This document shows positions 5,469 through 26,147 of a DNA stretch of 64,000 bases, one piece after another; position 1 is the stretch's first letter; every line of letters starts with the position of its first letter. This DNA comes from Macrostomum lignano (lineage: Eukaryota): the NCBI GenBank assembly GCA_002269645.1, contig NIVC01001776.1, forward strand, positions 388,809-452,808. The letters are read 5' to 3'. A model generated the notes under the pieces. It saw only the letters and a list, made by a program, of their open reading frames with translations, did not search any database and was not told the DNA's origin. Both the position numbers and the translations under genes were made by a program.

Positions 5469-5474
5469 GCCCGC
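5469..5474 (+). repeat. 6-bp target-site duplication GCCCGC (second copy 23224-23229)
   Basis: An identical hexamer directly flanks both termini. A 6-bp TSD is typical of Polinton integrases. Confidence 0.97.
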
Positions 5475-5838
5475 AGTAGTAGGTAAAAAGACGCCTACAG
5501 ACCCAGAGCACTTTTTAAATAGCAGTTTTAAGGGTCTAGAGGGGGGACACGGGGGGTAAATAAAAAAACACATCTAAACACCCTTAACACATCTAATCAC
5601 CCATAAACACATCTAATCACCCTTAATACCAAAAAGCAATATAACCCACCCCCAACACCCCCAACACTCCCCCTCGTGTCCCCCCTCTGGAACCTTATAA
5701 ACGGCCATTAAAAAAGGTCTGATCTGTAAGCGTCGTTTTACCTACTACTACACAACCCAACACTCCCCAACACTTCTAACACTTCCAAATCTCTATAACC
5801 CCTCGCACGCGCCGCAGGCGCGAAGGGTCTTTTTCTGT
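5475..5838 (+). repeat. Left terminal inverted repeat (364 bp)
   Basis: Reverse complement of 22858-23223. The only differences I found are two G/C homopolymer runs (6 vs 7 nt). Confidence 0.96.
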
Positions 5839-6024
5839 AGTATGAAACTTCATACTAGCCCATTCATGAAGAGGAGGCATAATACCATATATGGCAGCGA
5901 GAGTTTCATTCATAAGTTATAAATCGTCTCTTTTTCTTATACCACCCACTGTTCTATTATTCTACCCCAACCTATTGTGCTTCCACTTCGTCTCTTTTTT
6001 CTGTTACTAAAAATAGAACAAAAA

Positions 6025-6435
6025 ATGACACACGTTACACATATGCAAAATCTGAACGAATTGCAGGTAGGAGACCCAATTGAATACCGAGGTGAGGGGC
6101 TTTTTGATGTGGTTGGTACAGCAGCGAATTTCGTTAAAGACAATATGGGTCTTATAGGCCAAGCAGGCTCTGCAGCAGGTTCTATAACAAACGCTGTAAA
6201 GGGCGGAATCGAAGCAGCGAGGGCAGTAGAAGAACTAAAGAAATTGAGAGAATTTAACGACACCCTCTCACAAATAAAAGCAATAAAAGATTTGAAACTA
6301 GCGCAGGAAACAACTCAAGCCGCACAACCAACAGAAACCCCCACGAAAAGCGCGCCAATAAGTAATAAAGATATTCAGGATTTTAATAAAATGTTAACCA
6401 CAATTAAAGGCGGAAAAGGATTAAAGAAATTTTAA
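6025..6435 (+). CDS. Small probable virion core protein (136 aa) with GxG adenain-type sites
   Basis: ATG in AAAAAATG context at 6025 (the ORF track starts earlier at a non-ATG codon). Motifs YRGEG|LF and IKGGKG|L resemble maturation-protease sites, followed by an amphipathic Gly/Ala helix. Confidence 0.65.
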   Translation: MTHVTHMQNLNELQVGDPIEYRGEGLFDVVGTAANFVKDNMGLIGQAGSAAGSITNAVKGGIEAARAVEELKKLREFNDTLSQIKAIKDLKLAQETTQAAQPTETPTKSAPISNKDIQDFNKMLTTIKGGKGLKKF

Positions 6436-6445
6436 CAATATAAAA

Positions 6446-7432
6446 ATGGACACAGATAACGACCGCTTATATTTTATAGGAGAAATTGTAGATACTTTAG
6501 ATCTAGATGATAATAAAAATAGCCACACAATGTTAAAAAGATTGGATCGTTTAGGTAAAAAACTTGACTACGATATCGATACATTTAAACTTGCTGCAAA
6601 ATATGCACAAGAAGGAAGGCCAATATCCTTTAAGAATCATGGCAGAAATTATAGGCTGACAGACTCTGATGTAAAATTTTTATTGGAGACTCACACTAAA
6701 AAAGACGGTGGGTTGTTACCTATTTTACCAATTCTTTTAGGCCTCGGAGCAGCCGGAGCAGCCGGTTTAGCAGGCAAAAGAATTCATGATAACCGAAAAC
6801 AGTTAGCAGAATTAAAAGCAAAACAAGGGGGGATATTGCCACTAGCAACTTTATTACCAATAATTTTTGCAGGAATAGGAGCAGCTGGTGGAATAGCAGG
6901 TGGCGCAGCTGGAATCACAAAAGCAGTAAATGATAAAAAAGCTGCGGATGAAAAAGCTAAACGAGATGCAGAATTTCAAAGACAGCAAATAACACAGGAC
7001 GCACAATTCAAACAGAAACTTATTGATACCATTAATAGTAGTTCAGCAACAGCAGAGCAAAAAAGAAATGCAGAAGCTAGGTTAGCAGCCGGAAAAGGTT
7101 TACTCTTGCAAGGAACAAATCACGGGAATGGTTTGGTTTTAAAAGGAACAACCCAAGGAAGTGGAGTTGTAGCAGATAAACTACATGAATTTGGCCAAAC
7201 TTTAGAAAAAACGGGTGAGAAAGCTAAAGGATTTTTTGACAATATTGGAGCTAATTTTAGACCAGCTGTTCAGAAAATTTTTAATAAATTAGGAAAAGAT
7301 TTTAACATCATTGAAAAACACGACGGAAGCGGATTATATCTCGAAATGAGACCAAAAGCAGGATCAGGAATTTTCTTAAATTCAAACGTTATGGGCAATG
7401 GATTGCTATTACCAAAAGCAGATCTCGAATAG
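6446..7432 (+). CDS. Membrane-active/core precursor with two adenovirus protein X (mu precursor)-like hydrophobic motifs
   Basis: KDGG|LLPILPILLGLGAAGAAG and KQGG|ILPLATLLPIIFAGIGAAGG resemble the adenovirus pX GGILPLLIPLIAAAIGA motif. Six GxG-hydrophobic motifs follow in the C-terminal half. Confidence 0.75.
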   Translation: MDTDNDRLYFIGEIVDTLDLDDNKNSHTMLKRLDRLGKKLDYDIDTFKLAAKYAQEGRPISFKNHGRNYRLTDSDVKFLLETHTKKDGGLLPILPILLGLGAAGAAGLAGKRIHDNRKQLAELKAKQGGILPLATLLPIIFAGIGAAGGIAGGAAGITKAVNDKKAADEKAKRDAEFQRQQITQDAQFKQKLIDTINSSSATAEQKRNAEARLAAGKGLLLQGTNHGNGLVLKGTTQGSGVVADKLHEFGQTLEKTGEKAKGFFDNIGANFRPAVQKIFNKLGKDFNIIEKHDGSGLYLEMRPKAGSGIFLNSNVMGNGLLLPKADLE

Positions 7433-7515
7433 GCTCCTGGGGGGTGGGTCTGGACACCAAAAACGCAAATTAAAAAATCAATAATTCAAATACTATATAA
7501 ATTATATTCTATAAA

Positions 7516-9903
7516 ATGGAAGCAATTTTAGCTCAAATCGACAACCCCGAACTTAGAGCACAATTAATAGCTCAAATCGAAGCACAACGAATTGCCGATA
7601 GGGCTGAAATAGAAGCTAGAATTAGGGCAGAAAATGAGATACGTTTAGAAAGACAATTAAATGATATTGATAACCCCCAACCACAAGGACAAAATGGAGC
7701 TGAAGTAATATATATAGATATAGATATAAATACAAATTATAAAGAATATTTTAAACAAATGAAAGATAAAATAAAGACCATATTAGATAACTATACTATA
7801 AGACCAAATAACAAACGACAGCCAATTAAGTATAAAATAGAAGTTGAAACAGAATTTAAAAAACCAAATATACTTAATGCAAATTCAGAAATTGAAGTAA
7901 TAAATAACTTTTCACAAGAATCATATAAGACATTACTATCAATGGGGAATTACAACAATCAATTCGATCAAATAGAAGCTGAGTTTGATGAATGGATAGA
8001 TAAGATGACAGAAAACGGATCTGGGTTTATATTTGTTTCATGTAATTCAGCAACAGTAAAGATTGTTCCTATTGAAATTCTTAAAGGGCGATCACACATG
8101 ACACCATTATTTAAATCACATATGATTATAAATCCAGACAATAAAGATAATAAATGTTTATTATGGTGTTTATTAATTCATAAATATCACAAACAAGTAG
8201 AATCCCACACTAATAAAATATATAATTATAAACAATATGAGGATGAAATAATAATGAAAAACATCACATACCCAGTAGCAATAGATGATATATATAAGAT
8301 TGAAAAAATGAATGGTTTAAATATTAATGTGTTTACAATTGAAGAACCAGGAGATCTAGAAGTAATTCTAGCCGACCCAGAATGGTATAAGAAAAGGTGT
8401 TATCTTGTTAAGCCAGCAACTGATATAACAGCACCAGATCAAATCGACCTTTTGTACATACAGCGTGAAAATGAAACACATTATATATACATAAAGGACA
8501 TTAGTTCCTTTTTAAGAGAAAATAGAAATAGATATCCACTATGTAGAAATTGTTTCACATTTAAAAAGGATGAAAAAGCTCTTAAAAATCATCAACGATT
8601 TTGTTTAGATCATAAATTTACTAATGTTGTACTGCCAGCATCTGAAGATGCAACCCTAAAGTTCCAACAACATTATATGGCAATTAAAAAACCAATAGTA
8701 ATATATGCTGATTTTGAAGCAACAAATGTTCCCTTAAAAGAATCACAGACGGTATCTGATGATGGAGAATGCACAAAAAAATTAGCACAACAGTTTCCGA
8801 ATAGTTATTGTATATATGTACACTCCGTAGCTGATCATATATTTAAATCAAGGATGATTACTTACCACGGTAAGGATGCAGCAAAACACATGGCAGAATC
8901 ATTAGTAAATGCATTTGAATATATTCAAAATCAATATGATAAATTATCAAAAAATATTATTATGACAGATAAGGATAGAGACAATTATAAAAATGCAACA
9001 AATTGTTTTATGTGCAAAAGAGATTTAAGTGGGAAAAATAAGATACGAGAACATTGTCATCTAACGGGAATTTATCGAGGGGCAGCATGTAGATCATGTA
9101 ACGCAAAAGAAGGAAAAGGATGTAAGGAAATACCAGTATTTTTTCATAATGGTTCCGGATATGACTTTCATTTCCTAGTTCGAGAATTGCTTCATTTAGG
9201 TAGGGATGAATATGAATTAAATATATTACCTAAAACATCAGAAAATTACATATCAATAACATATGGTAAGAAATACTCCCATCTAGTTTTTCTAGATTCC
9301 TTGAGATTCTTATCAACATCTTTAGCAAATGTTGTTTCATCATTAGTTCCAAAACCATGGGATTTAGAAATAGTAAAGAAAAACTTTACAATACTATTGA
9401 ATCAATTCAAAAAAGAAAAACTATCCGAGGAAGAACTAATGCTATTAACTCGCAAGGGCATCTACCCATATGAATATGTAACATCTGAAGACGTATTTTT
9501 TCATACCGAATTACCCCCAATTGAAAAGTTTTATTCAACATTATCACAAACAAACATAAGTGAATCGGATTATGAACACGCTCAAAAAGTATGGAAATAT
9601 TTTAATTGTAAAACATTTAAAGATTATCATAATCTATATCTTAAAGCAGATGTTCTCCTTTTAGCTGATGCATTTGAAAACTTTAGGAATCATACATATG
9701 AGAACTTTAAAATTGATCCCGCTTATTGTTTCAGTGCACCCGGATTAACATGGGCATGTGGTTTGAAATACACAGATGTTGAGATTGATTTACTAACTGA
9801 TCATGATATGTTGTTAATGATTGAGAGAGGAATTCGCGGTGGGTTCTCGGGGGTACTAGGAGATAGATATACTAAAGTAAATAATAAATATCTACCAAAT
9901 TAA
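7516..9903 (+). CDS. polB: Protein-primed family B DNA polymerase, N-terminal part (terminal-protein region, OTU-like domain, Zn finger, exonuclease with endonuclease VII-like insert)
   Basis: DNKCLLWC...THYIYI (OTU-like Cys/His), CRNC...HQRFC, IYADFE (ExoI), CFMC...EHCHLTGIYRGAACRSCN, FFHNGSGYDFHF (ExoII), LDSLRFL, RKGIYPY, YLKADVLLLAD (ExoIII), RGIRGG. Confidence 0.96.
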   Translation: MEAILAQIDNPELRAQLIAQIEAQRIADRAEIEARIRAENEIRLERQLNDIDNPQPQGQNGAEVIYIDIDINTNYKEYFKQMKDKIKTILDNYTIRPNNKRQPIKYKIEVETEFKKPNILNANSEIEVINNFSQESYKTLLSMGNYNNQFDQIEAEFDEWIDKMTENGSGFIFVSCNSATVKIVPIEILKGRSHMTPLFKSHMIINPDNKDNKCLLWCLLIHKYHKQVESHTNKIYNYKQYEDEIIMKNITYPVAIDDIYKIEKMNGLNINVFTIEEPGDLEVILADPEWYKKRCYLVKPATDITAPDQIDLLYIQRENETHYIYIKDISSFLRENRNRYPLCRNCFTFKKDEKALKNHQRFCLDHKFTNVVLPASEDATLKFQQHYMAIKKPIVIYADFEATNVPLKESQTVSDDGECTKKLAQQFPNSYCIYVHSVADHIFKSRMITYHGKDAAKHMAESLVNAFEYIQNQYDKLSKNIIMTDKDRDNYKNATNCFMCKRDLSGKNKIREHCHLTGIYRGAACRSCNAKEGKGCKEIPVFFHNGSGYDFHFLVRELLHLGRDEYELNILPKTSENYISITYGKKYSHLVFLDSLRFLSTSLANVVSSLVPKPWDLEIVKKNFTILLNQFKKEKLSEEELMLLTRKGIYPYEYVTSEDVFFHTELPPIEKFYSTLSQTNISESDYEHAQKVWKYFNCKTFKDYHNLYLKADVLLLADAFENFRNHTYENFKIDPAYCFSAPGLTWACGLKYTDVEIDLLTDHDMLLMIERGIRGGFSGVLGDRYTKVNNKYLPN

Positions 9904-17904: not shown

Positions 17905-19377
17905 CTACAGCGGCGCGTCCCGAACAATCGTGTCATCAGCTTTAGCAATTGACATATATTCCTCTAGAAACAATACGTGTGCGTCTATTGCCTGATTACC
18001 GGTTTTATTAATCTCTAACATGTAATTAAGTCCAATATTGGCTACGTTTTCTTTCTGTGCAGTTAGATCATAAACAACCACTGGATGAATGTTTAGAAAC
18101 TCTGTGGGTGTGTACTGAGGGACGGCATACGCTTCATTTTTGGCATAATCTTGATAATATTTTATAAAATCATTAACATTATTATTTGCAATATTTAGAT
18201 TAAGAGGATCTTTAACCGGATAATATTGATCATCAACCTGCAGGCGGATATTCTGAACATTAAACTCGTTAATAGCTGCAGCCGCATTGTCTGTTGCGGT
18301 GGCTGCTTGTTCTGCTATGGCGTCCGATTGAATCCAATATAAATCCCCATTTGCTCTTTTACTCCTTCTGTTTGTTATTTTAAACCAAACAAAAATATAT
18401 CTCACCCGGCGTTTTGATGTAATTATCTGCCACTGGAATGAATCCTGATTATTATTAATGGTTCGCATAAAATGTCGACGATTCAAATAAAATATTTCCT
18501 GATCATGAGTTAACTGATTATCGATATGTTTTAAAAGTGGGGCTGTTACCTCAAGAGTTGGCACGACTAATTGTATTGAATCTATGCGAACTGCTATATC
18601 GGTTGAAACCGAATTTCCAAAAAGTATCCTAGGCTGATATCCACCAGATATTTGCAACTGTATCCCAAATTTTAATCCTTTCCATACCCGATTTGGTGAG
18701 AAGAACCCAAATAGCGGAAAGATTGAAAAGTCTTGCTCATATGCTGTTGCTGTGGTTAAAACCGCGACTGGGAATTTATTCTGACGATCTATAAAACCCG
18801 TATTAATCTCTTTTGTATTAGTCATAGTGGTTACAACTGGAACTATATTGGTATTAAGGTAATTAATAAGAGCTGCGGTATCTGCACCGGCTGCTGGTGC
18901 TACGTTAGGAAAATTTATTGCTCCACCATCACCCTTATCGGGCATCCATCCAACATTATCACCAACTTGTTTTGATAAATAAGTATAATTTAAATGTTTC
19001 AAAACTCCATTAATCTCTGCGGGGTTTGATGCTGTCTCAACCTCGGCTCCATTAACTGACAGTTGTGCTTGGGAAAAACATTTATAAAACCAATCATTTT
19101 CTATTATTATTCCAGATCGATCTGCGATATCGCCGGCTGCAAGAGCGGTTCCATCATTTCTAGTATACAACCATCTAACACGGAAAAATGCATTTTTCAT
19201 ATCCAATATAGTGTTGGTTGCGCCGATGTCAAAAGTTACCGTTCCGGTAGTAAAGTTATTTGAATTATCACTTGTTGGTAGGGTATAATTCAAATCTCTT
19301 GCCCTAACCTCATTAATATACTGGCGGTGCTTTTTGAAATGAAATTTATCACTCCACATAGTTTTTGTTTCAGCCAT
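17905..19377 (-). CDS. MCP: Major capsid protein (double jelly-roll)
   Basis: 490-aa beta-rich protein adjacent to the ATPase and penton. FSQAQLSVNGAEVE, RIDSIQLVVPTL, RVRYIFVWF, NIRLQVDDQYYP, HPVVVYDLT. Confidence 0.88.
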   Translation of the reverse strand: MAETKTMWSDKFHFKKHRQYINEVRARDLNYTLPTSDNSNNFTTGTVTFDIGATNTILDMKNAFFRVRWLYTRNDGTALAAGDIADRSGIIIENDWFYKCFSQAQLSVNGAEVETASNPAEINGVLKHLNYTYLSKQVGDNVGWMPDKGDGGAINFPNVAPAAGADTAALINYLNTNIVPVVTTMTNTKEINTGFIDRQNKFPVAVLTTATAYEQDFSIFPLFGFFSPNRVWKGLKFGIQLQISGGYQPRILFGNSVSTDIAVRIDSIQLVVPTLEVTAPLLKHIDNQLTHDQEIFYLNRRHFMRTINNNQDSFQWQIITSKRRVRYIFVWFKITNRRSKRANGDLYWIQSDAIAEQAATATDNAAAAINEFNVQNIRLQVDDQYYPVKDPLNLNIANNNVNDFIKYYQDYAKNEAYAVPQYTPTEFLNIHPVVVYDLTAQKENVANIGLNYMLEINKTGNQAIDAHVLFLEEYMSIAKADDTIVRDAPL

Positions 19378-19411
19378 TTTTTTAAGTTAAAAAAGTTTTT
19401 TATGTTAAAAA

Positions 19412-20080
19412 ATGAGTCAATTTATGGATGTTGATGGAGAGTTAGCGATTTATAAAGAGAAGCAAAGATATTCTGATTTTGTTAGAAATTTACAAAAAAG
19501 AAAGTTAGGAATACAATTAGCTGGCGAAAGATTTGCTGCTCCTTTTGTTAATCCTATTACGGGGAAAATTAGTGAACTAGAAAAAACAGATAAAGACCTT
19601 CTGGAAAAAATTGCTAAGAATACTGAGCCAAAAGAGGATGTAATTTTGGATGAGCCGCCTGCTTATGATGTTGATCAAACACTATTGAGAATTGCAGAGA
19701 TTAGACGTGCAGAAAGGAATGGAGTTGAACAATATCCAAGAGTACCAGCTAGTATTGCTGCGATAGATTTAGGTAATAATAATTATCGAATTGGTGGAGT
19801 TGATAAAAATCGAAATGAACTATATAGAGAATTGGGTGGGGCATTTAATATTATTATGAACCCTAGGGTAAAATTTAACCCCGATTTATATACTAGGGAT
19901 GAATTAGTAAGTGCTAAAATTTTTTACGATGAGTTAGGAGGTGGAGGTGTTAAAAATACCAGCTTGTATAAAAGGATTGTTAATTCTATAAATAACAAAC
20001 CGGCTGTTGGAGAAGGATTTAAAACTCCTAGAAAACTTGTTTTAGCTGCTGCGAAAGCTGCTGGACATACAGGTGTTTAA
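19412..20080 (+). CDS. Conserved Polinton core-type protein (uncharacterised PZ/PW class, assignment uncertain)
   Basis: F..PIT...., YTRDEL, a GEG site and a terminal LAAAKAAGHTG resembling the LLAS..AG(N/H)TG motif I recall from Polinton proteins. It may be C-terminally truncated. Confidence 0.6.
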   Translation: MSQFMDVDGELAIYKEKQRYSDFVRNLQKRKLGIQLAGERFAAPFVNPITGKISELEKTDKDLLEKIAKNTEPKEDVILDEPPAYDVDQTLLRIAEIRRAERNGVEQYPRVPASIAAIDLGNNNYRIGGVDKNRNELYRELGGAFNIIMNPRVKFNPDLYTRDELVSAKIFYDELGGGGVKNTSLYKRIVNSINNKPAVGEGFKTPRKLVLAAAKAAGHTGV

Positions 20081-20103
20081 TTGTTAAATTTATTTTTTAT
20101 AAA

Positions 20104-20685
20104 ATGGTTGAAACAAAGATTTGTACTAAGTGTAAACAAGAAAAACCGATGACAAAAGAGTTTTATTTTTGGAGAAATGATTCAAAAAAATTTAGAAATG
20201 ATTGCCGATCTTGTCATAATGCCTCATCTGCTATTTGGATAAAAAACAATAAAGATAAATGGAATGAATATAGAAAAAATAAGTATCACACTGATGATAA
20301 TTACAAACATATTGTTTTAATTAGAAATAGAATAAATTGGGCGTTGAAAAATTTTAATGACAAGGACTATATCTCATATCTTGGTTGCACAAAAGAATTC
20401 TTTTTTGATTGGTTAAATTTCACAAGAAATTATTATGTATCAAAAGATTATACTGGAAAGTTAGATATTGATCATTTCATCCCCGCTTCTTCATTTACTT
20501 ACAAAGATAATGACCAGATGAAAAAGTCTGAAAACTGGAGAAATAAAAGATACTTAACTAGCGTAGATAATCGCTATAAAAAAGTTCAACAACCAACCAT
20601 TGAAGAGTTTGCAAAACAATTAGTGCTATCATGTATTTTTAAGGCTATTAAAAATGAGCGACCGAACGAAGTTCGCGAACCGTAG
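20104..20685 (+). CDS. Free-standing HNH (His-Me finger) homing-type endonuclease with N-terminal Zn finger
   Basis: CTKC...CRSC, YLGC, DIDHFIP, NWRN and DNRYKK (H-N-N), similar to giant-virus HNH proteins. It has its own TATAAAATG start. Confidence 0.88.
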   Translation: MVETKICTKCKQEKPMTKEFYFWRNDSKKFRNDCRSCHNASSAIWIKNNKDKWNEYRKNKYHTDDNYKHIVLIRNRINWALKNFNDKDYISYLGCTKEFFFDWLNFTRNYYVSKDYTGKLDIDHFIPASSFTYKDNDQMKKSENWRNKRYLTSVDNRYKKVQQPTIEEFAKQLVLSCIFKAIKNERPNEVREP

Positions 20686-20740
20686 GTTCGATCGTGCGAT
20701 GCACGCGTTCCGAAGGAACGATCAATTAGTATTTGAATGA

Positions 20741-20842
20741 GGATTTTTAGATGTTCAAAAAGGATTAACAAGCTTACCGAGTATTTTTACTACTGGAAGG
20801 TATACAAATGAATTACACCTGCCGTCGTATAATTTCACAGGT
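20741..20842 (+). CDS. PLA2-integrase gene, 5' exon (no in-frame ATG after the TGA at 20738)
   Basis: Reads GFLDVQKGLTSLPSIFTTGRYTNELHLPSYNFTG, the N-terminal half of a parvovirus-type PLA2 Ca loop. Not in the ORF track. Confidence 0.85.
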
Positions 20843-21143
20843 TACCCCGTGGCCTGAGTGAGGAAGTCAATGTCCTTGCTAGTCACTATTTGTGGCGACA
20901 TCTTCAAATTGCGTGAAACCCGTCATACAGCTTCAAGTACCACTTCAATTGAGAAATCTTTTGAAGGAACAGAGGTAACTCCTCTTCCCAACGGTAACAA
21001 GCTTGAAGACACGGTGGCAATGCGCAGCCAAGCTCCTAAGTATTTAAATATAAGGAGAAGGTTCAGAGAGCAGACGGAGATGGGCGGTAATTTATCCGCT
21101 TAAGGTGTGCTCCAGCCTATTTCGAAAGATTTAGGGCAAACTA
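20843..21143 (+). ncRNA. Group I self-splicing intron, IC1-like, ORF-less, 301 nt
   Basis: P AAAUUGCGUGAAA, Q AAUGCGCAGC, R GUUCAGAGAGCA and S UAAGGUGUGCUCC elements are present in order. P1, P2.1, P3, P4, P5abc, P6, P7, P8, P9, P9.0 and P10 can all be paired. Removal restores FTG-PGT in frame. Confidence 0.93.
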
Positions 21144-22295
21144 CCCGGCACTCGCTTAGATTTGAGATTAAATCCTGATGATGACACTCCAAAAGCTGAT
21201 TCAATTCCCATTAACGGCATTGATTGGTTAGCATATTATCATGACTTAGCATACAGAGATGCTGATAAGAACACACCCGAAGAAGCATTAAGATTAAAAC
21301 ATGAAGCCGATAGAAAAATGATTCAAGGATTAGATAACTTACAAGGATTATCGGTAAGCCAAAGATTAACTCGGTGGATGGTTAAAAAAATCTTACAGTC
21401 TAAAGTTAAATTTGGTTTGGGAATTAATTACAACCAACATGGAAATAATTGTGTTGAGTGTTTATTATTAAGTGGTGGTGGGTTAAGTTTTGATGAGGCA
21501 AAGATTCTTCATAAAGAATATCGAAAACCTAAATTTTATAGAAAAATCATGAACTTCAAAAAGAACGAAATTTGGTATGCTGATTTAATGTCTATGCCGA
21601 TCGATAAAGGATATAAATATATTTTAACCATATTAGATGGTTTTACTCGATACGCGTGGGCAGTTCCTTTAAAATCCAAAAAAGGAGAGGAGGTTGCTGC
21701 TGCTTTTAGAAGCCTTGATGAAAAAAGCGAACGGTTGTGTGTTGATGAGGGAAAAGAATTTTACAATCCTCATATGTATAAATTATATCATTTTGAAAAT
21801 GGACAAGAAAGGAAAAAGGACGCGAATGGGGAGTATATTAATAAAATTTATTCTATTTATGGTGAAAGTAAAAATGCTTTAATAGAAAGATTTAATCGAA
21901 CTTTAGGTAAGAAATTGTGGTTTCAGTTTAGTCTTAATGGTAACCAAAAGTGGGTAAAAATATTACCAGATGTCGTGAAAGATTATAACAATTCATATCA
22001 TTCGGCAATAAAGATGACTCCTCAACAAGCTTATAACAATCCTGAAAACGTTAAAGTTACTTTTGGAAAATTTGAAAAAAATAAAAAGAAATCTTTTAAG
22101 GTTGGTGATTCTGTTTATATCTATAAATGGAAAAATAAGTTTGAAAAGGGAAGAAAAGGATATTGGAAAATAAGTGAGAAATTTACCATCAGTAAAGTTT
22201 TAAATACAAATCCTACAACCTATATAATTGCTGATAAGGATGGTGAAGAAATATTGGGTTCGTTTTATGAGAACCAACTAATATCAGCGAACTAA
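21144..22295 (+). CDS. INT: PLA2-integrase gene, 3' exon: parvovirus-type phospholipase A2 fused to a retroviral-type DDE integrase
   Basis: PGTRLDLRLNP...PINGID..AYYHDLAY...HEAD (PLA2 HD/D), KVKFGLG linker, then LHK..RK, WYADL (D), CVDEGKEF (D), LIERFNRTL (E) and a C-terminal FKVGD...GSFYENQL. Confidence 0.95.
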   Translation, partial: PGTRLDLRLNPDDDTPKADSIPINGIDWLAYYHDLAYRDADKNTPEEALRLKHEADRKMIQGLDNLQGLSVSQRLTRWMVKKILQSKVKFGLGINYNQHGNNCVECLLLSGGGLSFDEAKILHKEYRKPKFYRKIMNFKKNEIWYADLMSMPIDKGYKYILTILDGFTRYAWAVPLKSKKGEEVAAAFRSLDEKSERLCVDEGKEFYNPHMYKLYHFENGQERKKDANGEYINKIYSIYGESKNALIERFNRTLGKKLWFQFSLNGNQKWVKILPDVVKDYNNSYHSAIKMTPQQAYNNPENVKVTFGKFEKNKKKSFKVGDSVYIYKWKNKFEKGRKGYWKISEKFTISKVLNTNPTTYIIADKDGEEILGSFYENQLISAN

Positions 22296-22305
22296 GTTCG
22301 AACAA

Positions 22306-22530
22306 TTACTTGAGGCAGCATGGTAGTAAATTTTTTATAACAAACAAAAACAATATTATTACTATTATTGTTACTAATATAATTATTGACATTTGTTCAA
22401 CTGTTATCAAACTTAAATTTTCATTAAGTTCATTAATTGGAACATTTCCGATGTAGGAGTAATTTACCTTCATTTTTTTATATATATTTTTCATAATAAA
22501 TGTTGTTTCTGTTATAGAATAATAGTTCAT
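22306..22530 (-). CDS. Small single-pass membrane protein (74 aa) ending LLPCCLK
   Basis: AAAAAAATG at 22530, with hydrophobic run IIILVTIIVIILFLFVI. Confidence 0.6.
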   Translation of the reverse strand: MNYYSITETTFIMKNIYKKMKVNYSYIGNVPINELNENLSLITVEQMSIIILVTIIVIILFLFVIKNLLPCCLK

Positions 22531-22534
22531 TTTT

Positions 22535-22849
22535 TTACATAAAAATTTCAATTTCATTCTCAGAATCACTAGTTTCATATGAGCTATTTGTTGAGTTGGA
22601 ATCGTCTGAACGAACCTCCCAATCATCCGAATTTAAATAATTTCCAAGTTGAAATATTAACTCACCCTCTTGTTCTAAATCATACATCTCATCCAACTCT
22701 AATGGATAAAGTTTTAGGTCATGCTTGTCGTCATATTTTAAATAAACTTCATCAATTATTCCATTCAAAATATGTTGTTTTATTATCTCTGCATTTTTAG
22801 CAACAGTCTCAAAAGTATCACTAACAGAAAAGGTGTAAACTCGGGTCAT
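22535..22849 (-). CDS. Acidic hypothetical protein (104 aa)
   Basis: TAAAAATG start immediately inside the right TIR. D/E/S-rich C-terminus. Confidence 0.6.
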   Translation of the reverse strand: MTRVYTFSVSDTFETVAKNAEIIKQHILNGIIDEVYLKYDDKHDLKLYPLELDEMYDLEQEGELIFQLGNYLNSDDWEVRSDDSNSTNSSYETSDSENEIEIFM

Positions 22850-22857
22850 TTTTAGTA

Positions 22858-23223
22858 ACAGAAAAAGACCCTTCGCGCCTGCGGCGCGTGCGAGGGGTTA
22901 TAGAGATTTGGAAGTGTTAGAAGTGTTGGGGAGTGTTGGGTTGTGTAGTAGTAGGTAAAACGACGCTTACAGATCAGACCTTTTTTAATGGCCGTTTATA
23001 AGGTTCCAGAGGGGGGGACACGAGGGGGAGTGTTGGGGGTGTTGGGGGTGGGTTATATTGCTTTTTGGTATTAAGGGTGATTAGATGTGTTTATGGGTGA
23101 TTAGATGTGTTAAGGGTGTTTAGATGTGTTTTTTTATTTACCCCCCGTGTCCCCCCCTCTAGACCCTTAAAACTGCTATTTAAAAAGTGCTCTGGGTCTG
23201 TAGGCGTCTTTTTACCTACTACT
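22858..23223 (-). repeat. Right terminal inverted repeat (366 bp)
   Basis: Mirror of the left TIR, ending ...TTTTACCTACTACT. Confidence 0.96.
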
Positions 23224-26147
23224 GCCCGCATCCGGCTAAAAATGAGCAGCGCACAGGTAAGTTCAGAGGAATCGCAAAGCTTATTAGCAATTAATTGATA
23301 ATTATAGAAGCTCGCCAATTCAAACTGCAGCAGACCGGCTTCAGCAGCTCTCACTGGGCTCGGCTGCCCGGAGGTCAGGAAAGCCAGGACTGGCTGGTCA
23401 GGTGCAGCGTCAGTCAGTCAGGCCTGCTGTACCCGGATGTTGAAGCCAAGTTCTCAACTGGAAGTGAGTGCTGACCAAATAACTGCAGATCTGATTTTAC
23501 CTTAAAGATAGCACTAAAGCCAATGGCCTCATTTCAATCGCACAGGAAAAATCGTCCGCGAGCACCTCTGAGCATTTCAGTAATCAGTGGTGTGCTTATA
23601 TGAACTGTTTAGGGAAAAATGATAATGAAACAAAGAATAATAATAACTTTTAAGAGGATTTTTGTTTATTCGCTTACATCTTTGAGAAAATGACTCCTAA
23701 TTGGCCCTTAATAGCCAGCCGTCATACCGGTAGGATTTAAAAAACGGAAAAAACTTTGGAAACAGAAAACGATCAACTGGAAATAAGTGAAAGATGGGTA
23801 GACTGTAGCTGAGATATGTTTTATTAACATGGCCTAATTCATATGTTTCGTTTTAAAGTTGCAGCTCAGTGCGACGATCGCTCGGCAAGGTTTTTCTCGC
23901 TTCTATTGGCTTCTATACTGGCTTCACTAGTTGTGGGCTTCCTTCTGTCTACAATATACCACAAATCTGGTATGCTTTTTACCTGCGAGAGAAATCTGGT
24001 GAGTCATATTTAAAATATTTCAAAATTCAATTTCAAATCTGCCAGAAAGTGTTTCACGTCATTATTTCGTACCATTTATGGTGCTGTGTTCATGCATACT
24101 CCATAGATCAAAGTTCATCATGCATATTTCCTTAATGCTTCGACAATGAAATTGCGATTTTTAATTTATCCTTTATACATGGAATGAATCCTGTACGCTT
24201 GAAAAATTTTAGCCACAGAGAGGTCACACTGAACAGCGAAGTCAGCACAATGCAGGTCAGGCCGTCCCAATGCGAATACGGAACAACTTCGCAGTGCAAA
24301 ATGACTCACACGGCAGCAGTGAATACGACTATCCAACCACTGAGCAGCCAGGAAGCTGCCGAAATGAACAGTAGGGTCAAGGAGGTGCCTACACAGGTGC
24401 TGCTGGTTCCTTTACAACAGGGACCACTGAATGAAGGTCGGGTTTACGTCAACCGGACTGAAAATGCTACTTGAGTCAGTTGAGAATTCAAGTAAGAACT
24501 TGAGAGGCTGTGAGACAGATTTTGACATTGTTGCTTGCCAAGTGCACCAGTGTCCAATATTCAGTCATGTGACCCATAATGAAACACTTCAAACCGATTC
24601 TGACTTGGCAACAAGTCGGTACTGCTATGCTTAATGATGCGACAATACTGATCACTTTGTGCACTATTTACTAGCTCTGATTTGTAGCTCTCTTTTATGA
24701 CTTTCATGAAGTAGATGTTGAAAACCGGTTTTTCGAACGATAGAACGAGCAGTCGCTGTTTTCGTGATATTACTGGTATTACTAAAAATAGAATCTGACG
24801 CATGCTATTTTTAAATGTGTTCATATTTTTATCTGACTACTTCTAGTAGTCTACTGTGTTTCTTAGATCTCTACACTATTAGAAATTTGCTTTTTTAAGG
24901 CGACTTATGCTTTACTCCTGTAACAATAATTAAACTCGATTTCTTGGTCAAGAATCCAAATATATATTTTTCCGATTCAAAATTCAGTCAACATGTTTGT
25001 TTTCTGATGCAACTGGAAGTACTTGTAGGCCCTGTGTACCTCTGAGACGCTGAATTGATAGATGTGGTCTTTGGTTGCGGTCGGGTTCTTCTTGACGAGT
25101 AGTAGACTGTAGAGCCGGCTTATAGTATTTGTGCTTTCAATAGCAGAGGCCCAATGAGATTCTGGGAAATAGCTATGTGCTCCAAGGAAAAATGAGAGGA
25201 CTGCATCAAAACTCAACAATGGGCTGAATAGCCAAGTAGTATAGGCCATTGGTTGCGTAGCTCGTATACGAATGGAGCAGATTCTTAATGTTACAGGCGG
25301 ACTTATTTTTCGACGCAGGAGGGATTAGAAAAAGGATTAGAAAGTCCTGAAGGACTTATCACAGGCTTAAACGTCCTTGGAAGCACTGGGCACGCTATAG
25401 TGCTCTCCGTAAGTTTCTGTTACTCATTAAGACTGCTTGTTTACAGATGTGATAGGGAAAGCGCTTTCGGCAACCTAGTTTACTGTAAGCGTACATGATT
25501 GATGCATTTGATTGATTTCAGTTTAGGGGTTCTCTGGGTGCGCACATTATGGTAGAATAAAATTCATGCAACGATTGTTCATGTCGGTGTCTAAAGGTCA
25601 ACTGAATGTTTTATTGCTTATGTAGAGCTAACATTAGTCACATTCTATTTTCAGCATTTTTAGATTTACAAACGCATTTTCTTACCATACTACTAGCCAT
25701 ACAAAAACAAATTGAATACCTGTACATTATTAAGTCGGTTTTTCTGCTGTTACTGCACTTTACATGGGTTTTTCTTGTGCTTTGGCTCGACTCTTATCTT
25801 TTGCTTAAAAATGTGCAGTATATGCTGAAGCTAAGATTGCAAGGTAGAATTTTTGTATAAATTACAGAAAAGCCAGACACTGATACTTGATTTATAAAAA
25901 AGTAAATTGGTAAAAGCTAATACTAACTAAAATAAAGTACGGCTTTTGAATTCAAGTACGTCTTTAGTTCTTTGCGGCTCGAATCGTTTTGCAATGTCTG
26001 ATAAGCTAAACAGCGGAAATTTCAAACTAACATTTGCACTTTTGAATCTGCAAGTCTTCATCTTGTTGTCATTGGTTTCAGAGTAAGAAACGAATAGAAT
26101 GCTTTTTAATATCGCATCCAATTGTACTAAAGAATTTTTTGTTCCGC

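Follow-up and report, generated by a model that had tools for sequence, protein, structure and literature searches.

A group I intron at a GGNCC site in the PLA2-integrase gene of a Macrostomum lignano Polinton, and its two candidate nuclease neighbours

The Polinton element, its split gene and the intron

The window analysed here is a 64,000-nucleotide stretch of the Macrostomum lignano assembly (contig NIVC01001776.1), which contains a Polinton/adintovirus-type element with the following features (window coordinates; strand given where assigned).

5473-23225: Polinton/adintovirus-type element, 17,753 bp, based on terminal inverted repeats, rve, A32 ATPase, PLA2-like matches and polB homologues
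5473-5838: left terminal inverted repeat (inverted-repeat arms I1-I3)
22858-23225: right terminal inverted repeat (inverted-repeat arms I1-I3)
19412-20080, + strand: conserved ORF, function unassigned by family matches, left flank of the nuclease slot
20104-20685, + strand: free-standing zinc-finger and HNH-like nuclease gene, 193 aa, open; one of two alternative slot tenants
20654-20842, + strand: exon 1 of the PLA2-like/integrase fusion gene, ending in a Gly codon; its start overlaps the end of the HNH-like gene
20663-20720: array of four short GC-rich hairpins, their number varying between copies
20843-21143, + strand: ORF-less group I intron, type A, 301 nt, splitting Gly/Pro codons between GGN and CC
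20852-20862, + strand: internal guide sequence (3' strand of P1), U.G pair 20842/20852
20887-20891, + strand: P2.1 loop, the position of an Eco47II-like ORF in family 2 and in metagenome contig L224
21066-21072 with 21108-21113, + strand: P7, guanosine-binding pair G21068-C21112 intact
21143, + strand: terminal intron nucleotide, A (omega-A), directly 3' of P9.0
21144-22295, + strand: exon 2, encoding a PLA2-like/rve integrase fusion, first codon Pro

The element combines terminal inverted repeats with an rve integrase, a pPolB and an A32 ATPase, i.e. the hallmarks of Polintons/Mavericks, confirming the location within a Polinton that the initial annotation had proposed. Its pPolB has thousands of homologues, the named relatives being those of a mussel and of spiders. 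Candidate ORFs for the major and minor capsid proteins and the protease are present in the element but gave no Pfam match, and the ORF at 19412-20080 had no family match in Pfam, PHROGs or NCBIfam. The window copy is decayed, with an in-frame stop in exon 1 (20738-20740) and a polB frameshift near 9900 (9903-9968). The fusion proteins of natural intronless copies pass the Pfam threshold for PF08398, the rve match being below the cut-off in family 1, to which the window element belongs.

Short GC-rich hairpins, often as pairs of ~30 nt, occur at 10745-10772, 11710-11737, 11822-11836, 20663-20720 and 22288-22300. They are inserted in frame in polB and at gene junctions, in other copies also in intron loops (P5 and P6 regions), and may represent a small mobile palindrome. 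Two polB relatives, P0203 and P0217, carry precomputed Pfam assignments to PF14528 and PF14890, which we take to be LAGLIDADG_3 and intein splicing, respectively, so that inteins would also be present in the Polinton clade of the window element.

The ORF-less group I intron recognised in the initial annotation is well supported. Its exact boundaries agree with natural intronless copies, in which both exons are contiguous, the P1 U.G pair at the 5' splice site is present (U20842.G20852; type B, a second intron type, carries a compensatory P1 change), and P3 to P9.0 of the window intron all pair. In an alignment of 12 related cores 95.9% of the cells are paired and 31 of 59 pairs contain double-sided changes; none of 500 shuffles reached the real value and slid controls gave 34-51%, the structure having been drawn from the window sequence itself and the 12 rows being related to each other. 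P7 is 100% paired with double changes in four of its six pairs, and the guanosine-binding G-C pair is found in 12/12 cores. Two type-B rows break P4, the alignment apparently being one column off. The folding energy of the whole intron is unexceptional (z=-1.43). An Rfam scan of the window in gathering and E-value modes did not detect the intron, and type B gave no match to RF00028 either; the same model matches two relatives at the same site, the family-2 locus L158 (85.2 bits) and the independent metagenome contig L224 (80.6 bits; cut-off 50). By these sequence criteria the segment 20843-21143 is a real group I intron, presumably of an IE-like subgroup as judged from its motifs. Contigs from four sequencing runs, whose RNA nature is only guessed, contained no spliced exon joint, which is uninformative.

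Of the 112 type-A copies, 83 terminate in A and 29 in G, and a terminal G is found in every family-2 junction read and in L224. We regard the window intron as the omega-A form within a lineage in which the other alleles end in G. G-ending alternative 3' splice sites for type A were rejected, as the in-frame ones lie within P9. Among copies L001-L030 exon 2 is open in 21 of 24 omega-A copies, and hence omega-A alleles have spread.

Type B occupies the same 5' splice site in 24 of 140 copies (L039, L060, L086-L091 and L099 among them). It differs from type A in the catalytic core, with P1, P2/P2.1 and the P5 extension common to both, an apparent case of domain swapping between ribozymes as far as the sequences tell. 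The type-B 3' splice site is ambiguous and may not yield Gly-Pro, and in L105 an insertion of ~830 nt lies within the P8 region of the type-B intron.

Two nuclease genes in the slot upstream of the intron

The HNH-like gene was described at the outset as intact-looking and external to the intron, and so it is: its 193-aa ORF is open and its stop lies 157 nt 5' of the 5' splice site. The protein has an N-terminal four-cysteine finger followed by D123, H124, N147 and N156, which are invariant in 48/48 distinct intact alleles and whose functional roles (Asp-His...Asn...Asn) we presume from HNH chemistry. PHROGs assigns the ORF to endonuclease VII (E=1.5e-8); Pfam returned just two sub-threshold cytochrome rows and NCBIfam nothing. 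Foldseek gave no match to the HNH model at E<=0.001, the weak top rows being Cas9 HNH domains, and the best structural match, the zinc finger of Hpy99I (Z 5.8, rmsd 2.5, 42 aligned), is weakly informative. PDB sequence searches with the HNH and Eco47II-like profiles returned nothing below E=0.02, and none of the 32 candidates from a word-based homologue search with HNH was significant. The HNH family is widespread in viruses (2280 matches), and pN/pS amounts to 0.53 overall and 0.38 in the catalytic half. The HNH protein is probably an active second nuclease.

In sister copies, although not in the window copy, the slot is occupied by a second gene encoding an Eco47II-like protein of about 168 aa. 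The intronic form of this protein, found in family 2, scores above the cut-off of Pfam RE_Eco47II (26.9 vs 25.9 bits), the free-standing and L224 forms below it (20.6 and 21.0 bits). Its neighbours in the Atlas are Eco47II and EcoO109I. The structural model (pLDDT 92) has EcoO109I, which reads RGGNCCY, as top fold match (Foldseek E=3e-5; Z 9.5, rmsd 3.6, 158 aligned), and the ~160-aa protein appears to have no additional DNA-binding domain in the model. E49, D65, E76 and K78 are invariant in 11/11 sequences, and the intronic and free forms, 66% identical, are each under purifying selection (pN/pS 0.31-0.38), with 26 of the 37 free-standing copies intact. Sequence and model thus identify the Eco47II-like protein as a putative PD-(D/E)xK restriction-type endonuclease. 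PMC10305163, in its available text, associates an Eco47II homologue with GGNCC, though "without certainty".

Family 2, another Polinton family of this genome, is divergent from family 1 and has the same intron site. Of 16 loci picked by PLA2 similarity, 14 are plainly intronless, L159 has an intronless PLA2 gene behind an intron fragment, and L158 contains an 880-nt intron with an Eco47II-like ORF in the P2.1 loop. A search with this intronic ORF gave 108 matches, from which 40 further loci were taken: in 35 the ORF directly follows exon 1 and the intron 5' end, the rest being three family-1 slot copies and two fragments. L224 likewise has the ORF inside an intron inserted at this site; of nine database homologues of the ORF, six run on into ribozyme-core sequence. 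A nuclease tree of 22 rows places all seven free-standing copies in a single clade (100/99) among clades of intron-encoded ones; this suggests an exit of the gene from the intron and not an entry into it, the tree being unrooted and without an outgroup. No match was found when viral contigs were scanned with the Eco47II-like protein or its alignment, with exon 2 or with the intron-junction pattern. No cognate methyltransferase was found among the window ORFs scanned (14 against Pfam, 11 against NCBIfam), the window copy itself being without the Eco47II-like gene. In the intronless family-2 copies L159 and L212:200-1120 an apparent short remnant of the start of the Eco47II-like ORF lies upstream, in L159 together with a cut-off intron 5' end.

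The distribution of both genes was determined for family-1 loci collected by similarity to the region (30 of 52 matches), by HNH match (80 stretches, nearly all from 130 matches) and by exon-2 match (53 stretches from the best 150 of 476 candidates). We left out five unrelated pattern matches, a duplicate and six HNH loci lacking exon 2, and classified those 140 of the 142 rows that had both exons; sampling is biased towards HNH and the copies are related, so that the counts are tallies rather than independent events. The slot between the ORF at 19412-20080 and the PLA2 gene holds HNH in 103/140 and the Eco47II-like gene in 37/140 copies, with shared junctions. HNH copies have intron A in 83, intron B in 17 and no intron in three cases, Eco47II-like copies intron A in 29, B in seven and an unclassified variant in one, none being intronless. 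Slot gene and intron type (A vs B) are not associated (Fisher p=0.80), nor are slot gene and intron presence (0/37 vs 3/103 intronless; p=0.57), the latter test having little power with the intron nearly fixed (137/140). A pattern search for intronless alleles gave six matches, one being a family-1 copy and five unrelated to either query exon.

Depletion of GGNCC

The intron is inserted between GGN and CC. The window element contains no GGNCC (9.9 expected), the host flanks 76 in 46 kb (86 expected). Codon-order shuffles of the element ORFs contained 15.4 on average and four at minimum, none of 1000 being as low as the real sequence, and among all 1024 5-mers the four GGNCC words are the sole absentees with an expectation of at least 4. 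When 689 palindromic patterns were screened for a purged motif specific to HNH, the only ones absent from the element were GGNCC, its sub-patterns and RGCGCY (3.3 expected). Three words are half-depleted with no known cause: CANTG (30 vs 57), CTNAG (16 vs 32) and CCNGG (9 vs 17).

We also counted GGNCC in homologous intervals of seven other elements. The three nuclease-bearing ones have none (16.3, 10.7 and 3.6 kb), two intronless family-1 elements have one and two in ~16 kb, the PLA2 site among them in each, and two intronless family-2 elements have three and two (PLA2 site and terminal repeat). The family-2 copies L159 and L212:200-1120 share a near-identical terminal repeat and have different termini with one GGNCC. 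Across the family-1 stretches one GGNCC was found in 519 kb, a figure that comes from related copies, misses the three intronless junctions and is not used as a main figure. As Gly-Pro always spells GGNCC, the element ORFs are without Gly-Pro except for that of PLA2 in intronless copies (ORFs of at least 120 aa).

Twenty Polinton-like IMG/VR contigs, by BLAST without the Eco47II-like gene, HNH and the intron, served as controls and contain 232 GGNCC vs 236 expected, several of them with an uninterrupted Gly-Pro-Gly PLA2 motif. One of them, L242, is nevertheless purged (GGNCC 0 vs 10.5 expected, CCNGG 1 vs 18 expected) and no restriction gene explaining this was found in the 14.4 of 20.1 kb examined, so that outside pressures can also purge GGNCC. 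CCNGG is also rare in contig L239 (1, with 10.8 expected), and such loss of words may be widespread among Polinton-like viruses.

The Gly-Pro counts of polB are weakened as independent proof of the purge by a general scarcity of this dipeptide: distant polBs have 31 vs 72.5 expected, so that the expectation of 9.0 Gly-Pro is inflated. Near 9850 polB contains the motif RGG[FY]SG[VL]LG, followed by Pro in 27 of 73 relatives and by Asp in the window element and one family-2 copy; loss of this proline is no predictor of a lower Gly-Pro content elsewhere (7/55.7 vs 5/33.8).

A proposed GGNCC cutter as homing enzyme, alternatives and known systems

We favour a reading that ties together an enzyme cutting GGNCC with no methyltransferase, a genome purged of this word and an intron that masks the one required site, and estimate its probability at roughly 60%. 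The Polinton lineages would carry, or have recently carried, the Eco47II-like PD-(D/E)xK enzyme without a methyltransferase, and would protect themselves by the genome-wide loss of GGNCC described above. One GGNCC could not be removed, since Gly-Pro is always GGN-CCN and the PLA2 loop keeps Gly-Pro-Gly, which the protein presumably needs; the accessible part of PMC8502044 links PLA2 to entry by analogy with parvoviruses. The intron splits this GGN/CC in the DNA and would restore the codon pair in the RNA. In a purged genome a 5-bp cutter would be left with one target, the intronless allele, and would thereby work as the homing endonuclease of the intron: a break at the insertion site of an intronless sister genome, repaired from an intron-bearing copy, would spread intron and nuclease together, and the same enzyme would also cut unpurged competitor DNA. 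Its target may coincide with the insertion site, the family link to GGNCC and the purge bearing on this indirectly. HNH would then be exchanged with the Eco47II-like gene in the slot and be a neighbour of the intron rather than its dedicated mobiliser, as slot gene and intron type assort independently; HNH-bearing copies could tolerate the absence of the intron, as in the three intronless ones. Against this reading, most family-1 copies lack the nuclease and are still purged, and with so many GGNCC in the host an active 5-bp cutter would need confinement in time or space. The wider claim, i.e. restriction without modification in animal-associated Polintons, with the word erased from the genome, Gly-Pro erased from the proteome and a ribozyme as required immunity device, we hold to be slightly less probable than an even bet.

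The most serious alternative, which we nonetheless regard as unlikely, is ordinary homing by an Eco47II-like enzyme with a longer, GGNCC-centred site like that of I-Ssp6803I, the purge coming from outside (helper or giant virus, host) and the masking being incidental. The ORF in a peripheral intron loop and the coexistence of intron-plus and intronless alleles in family 2 fit this well, as does the purge of L242 without the gene, and a long site would spare the host from damage. PD-(D/E)xK homing enzymes with 17-bp sites exist according to the available text of PMC3424549, where I-Ssp6803I and similar enzymes are, as here, restriction-fold nucleases in a group I intron loop; the protein described here differs in belonging to an Eco47II/EcoO109I-like family whose 5-bp core is missing elsewhere in the genome. 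It argues against ordinary homing that the purged word is the very site ascribed to the element's own enzyme family, that two divergent families of this genome are purged whereas 19 of 20 controls are not, and that the protein of ~160 aa has no extra DNA-binding domain.

The initial annotation had combined the adjacent nuclease and the ORF-less intron into a two-part system with HNH as partner, which would mobilise the intron by cutting PLA2 alleles without it close to the insertion site. The convergence of a nuclease and an intron on one site can be retained, for the Eco47II-like gene; HNH as the partner we consider improbable. It is adjacent to the intron, which 100 of its 103 copies possess, its catalytic residues are invariant, pN/pS is 0.38 in the catalytic half and 0.53 overall, diversity among the four segments compared is highest in exon 1, as expected near a nuclease target, and the intronless HNH copies differ around the site and could be resistant. 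However, the co-occurrence that such a pairing implies is absent, since all 37 copies without HNH have the intron, intact HNH with its catalytic residues is present in two of the three intronless copies, and alleles 91-95% identical to that of the window adjoin intron A, intron B or no intron. A co-conversion tract tied to HNH was not seen either: HNH allele groups are found together with various exon-1 groups and with either intron type, indicating free recombination, and no flank position is fixed by the slot gene, the largest allele-frequency gap being ~0.4. Moreover, wherever the region is covered HNH lies in the slot and never within the intron, whereas the Eco47II-like nuclease does occur there. 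The distribution thus lowers the role of HNH, with the intron near fixation limiting the power of the test.

Equally improbable is that HNH is a homing enzyme for its own slot, directed against Eco47II-bearing copies, or a general anti-competitor nuclease, with the family-1 intron as a fixed immobile passenger and the masking as a relic: HNH holds about three quarters of the slots (in HNH-biased sampling) with precise cassette junctions and belongs to a widespread viral family, and the nearly fixed, mostly A-ending intron resembles the host-dependent obligatory introns in the accessible part of PMC6545197, but the HNH flanks contain no diagnostic protected site and most Eco47II-like copies are intact and under purifying selection. 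As to the origin of the intron this agrees with the favoured GGNCC-cutter reading, from which it differs only on present activity.

The closest precedent for the favoured reading is collaborative homing, for which the available texts of PMC6083498 and PMC3984707 describe F-CphI and the ORF-less psbA intron of cyanophage S-PM2. Part of family 1 shows the same layout, with the Eco47II-like gene free-standing just upstream of an ORF-less intron. In contrast to F-CphI/psbA, the system presented here would belong to a eukaryotic integrating virus, its proposed partner is restriction-enzyme-like rather than HNH, its specificity seems to arise from purging of a 5-bp word, and the unrooted tree suggests that the gene exited from the intron. 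Collaborative homing is also raised for helicases and replicases in the parts of PMC11296320 and 10.64898/2026.10.13.758929 available to us. Type II restriction-modification systems such as Eco47II and EcoO109I share the nuclease family and fold and possibly the use against co-infecting DNA; they differ in that no methyltransferase was found in the scanned window ORFs, self-protection here apparently being achieved by site loss and the intron. Possible restriction-modification systems in Polinton-like viruses are proposed in the accessible portions of 10.64898/2026.06.19.733378 and 10.64898/2026.10.13.758929, in the former with methyltransferases.

Group I introns of protist Polinton-like viruses are described in the available parts of 10.1101/2023.08.22.554363 and PMC12220804. 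Those of PMC12220804 resemble the window intron in being ORF-less, about 300-380 nt long and located in genes of integrating dsDNA viruses; there, as far as the available text goes, they match Rfam, are found in few protist groups and lie in a short ORF located upstream of the capsid gene, without an assigned nuclease, whereas the window intron is Rfam-negative and lies in a PLA2-integrase gene, in a polB clade that includes animal members. A terminal A is shared with the hexacoral mitochondrial ND5-717 intron, for which ligated exons are reported in vivo (PMC6545197, PMC8146996, both as available in part); ND5-717 is an obligatory organellar intron, whereas A and G are polymorphic here among copies of one viral family. 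The word "intron" does not occur in the accessible text of PMC11131425. The literature covered (main texts, few subscription papers) yielded neither a Polinton PLA2 gene with a group I intron, nor an intron nuclease of Eco47II type, nor the combination of masking by an intron with a genome-wide purge; intron tables in the supplements to PMC12220804 and to Polinton surveys may be relevant here.

According to the available part of a 2013 review (PMC3679873) nuclear group I introns occur solely in the rRNA genes of microorganisms. The more than 100 intron copies in protein-coding genes of a 764-Mb nuclear assembly, missed by standard Rfam scans, contrast with this and, if the reading is correct, group I ribozymes, many of them A-ending, reside in protein-coding genes of what is probably an animal nuclear genome. 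A restriction enzyme would then have become a single-site homing enzyme by a change of the target genome and not of the protein, and nuclease self-immunity would have, besides methylation and long sites, a third route, the purging of a word while an intron is placed over its irreplaceable copy. It would also imply that Polinton copies meet and recombine, and hence compete as viruses. With one nuclease present at the same site both within the intron and free-standing, the origin of mobile introns becomes testable outside phages, and the omega-A and omega-G alleles offer a natural comparison for ribozyme chemistry.

Finally, an AT-rich motif ending in AAAATG precedes both slot genes as well as the intron-encoded ORF (window 20080-20106; L158:1150-1175) and is a candidate viral promoter or start signal.
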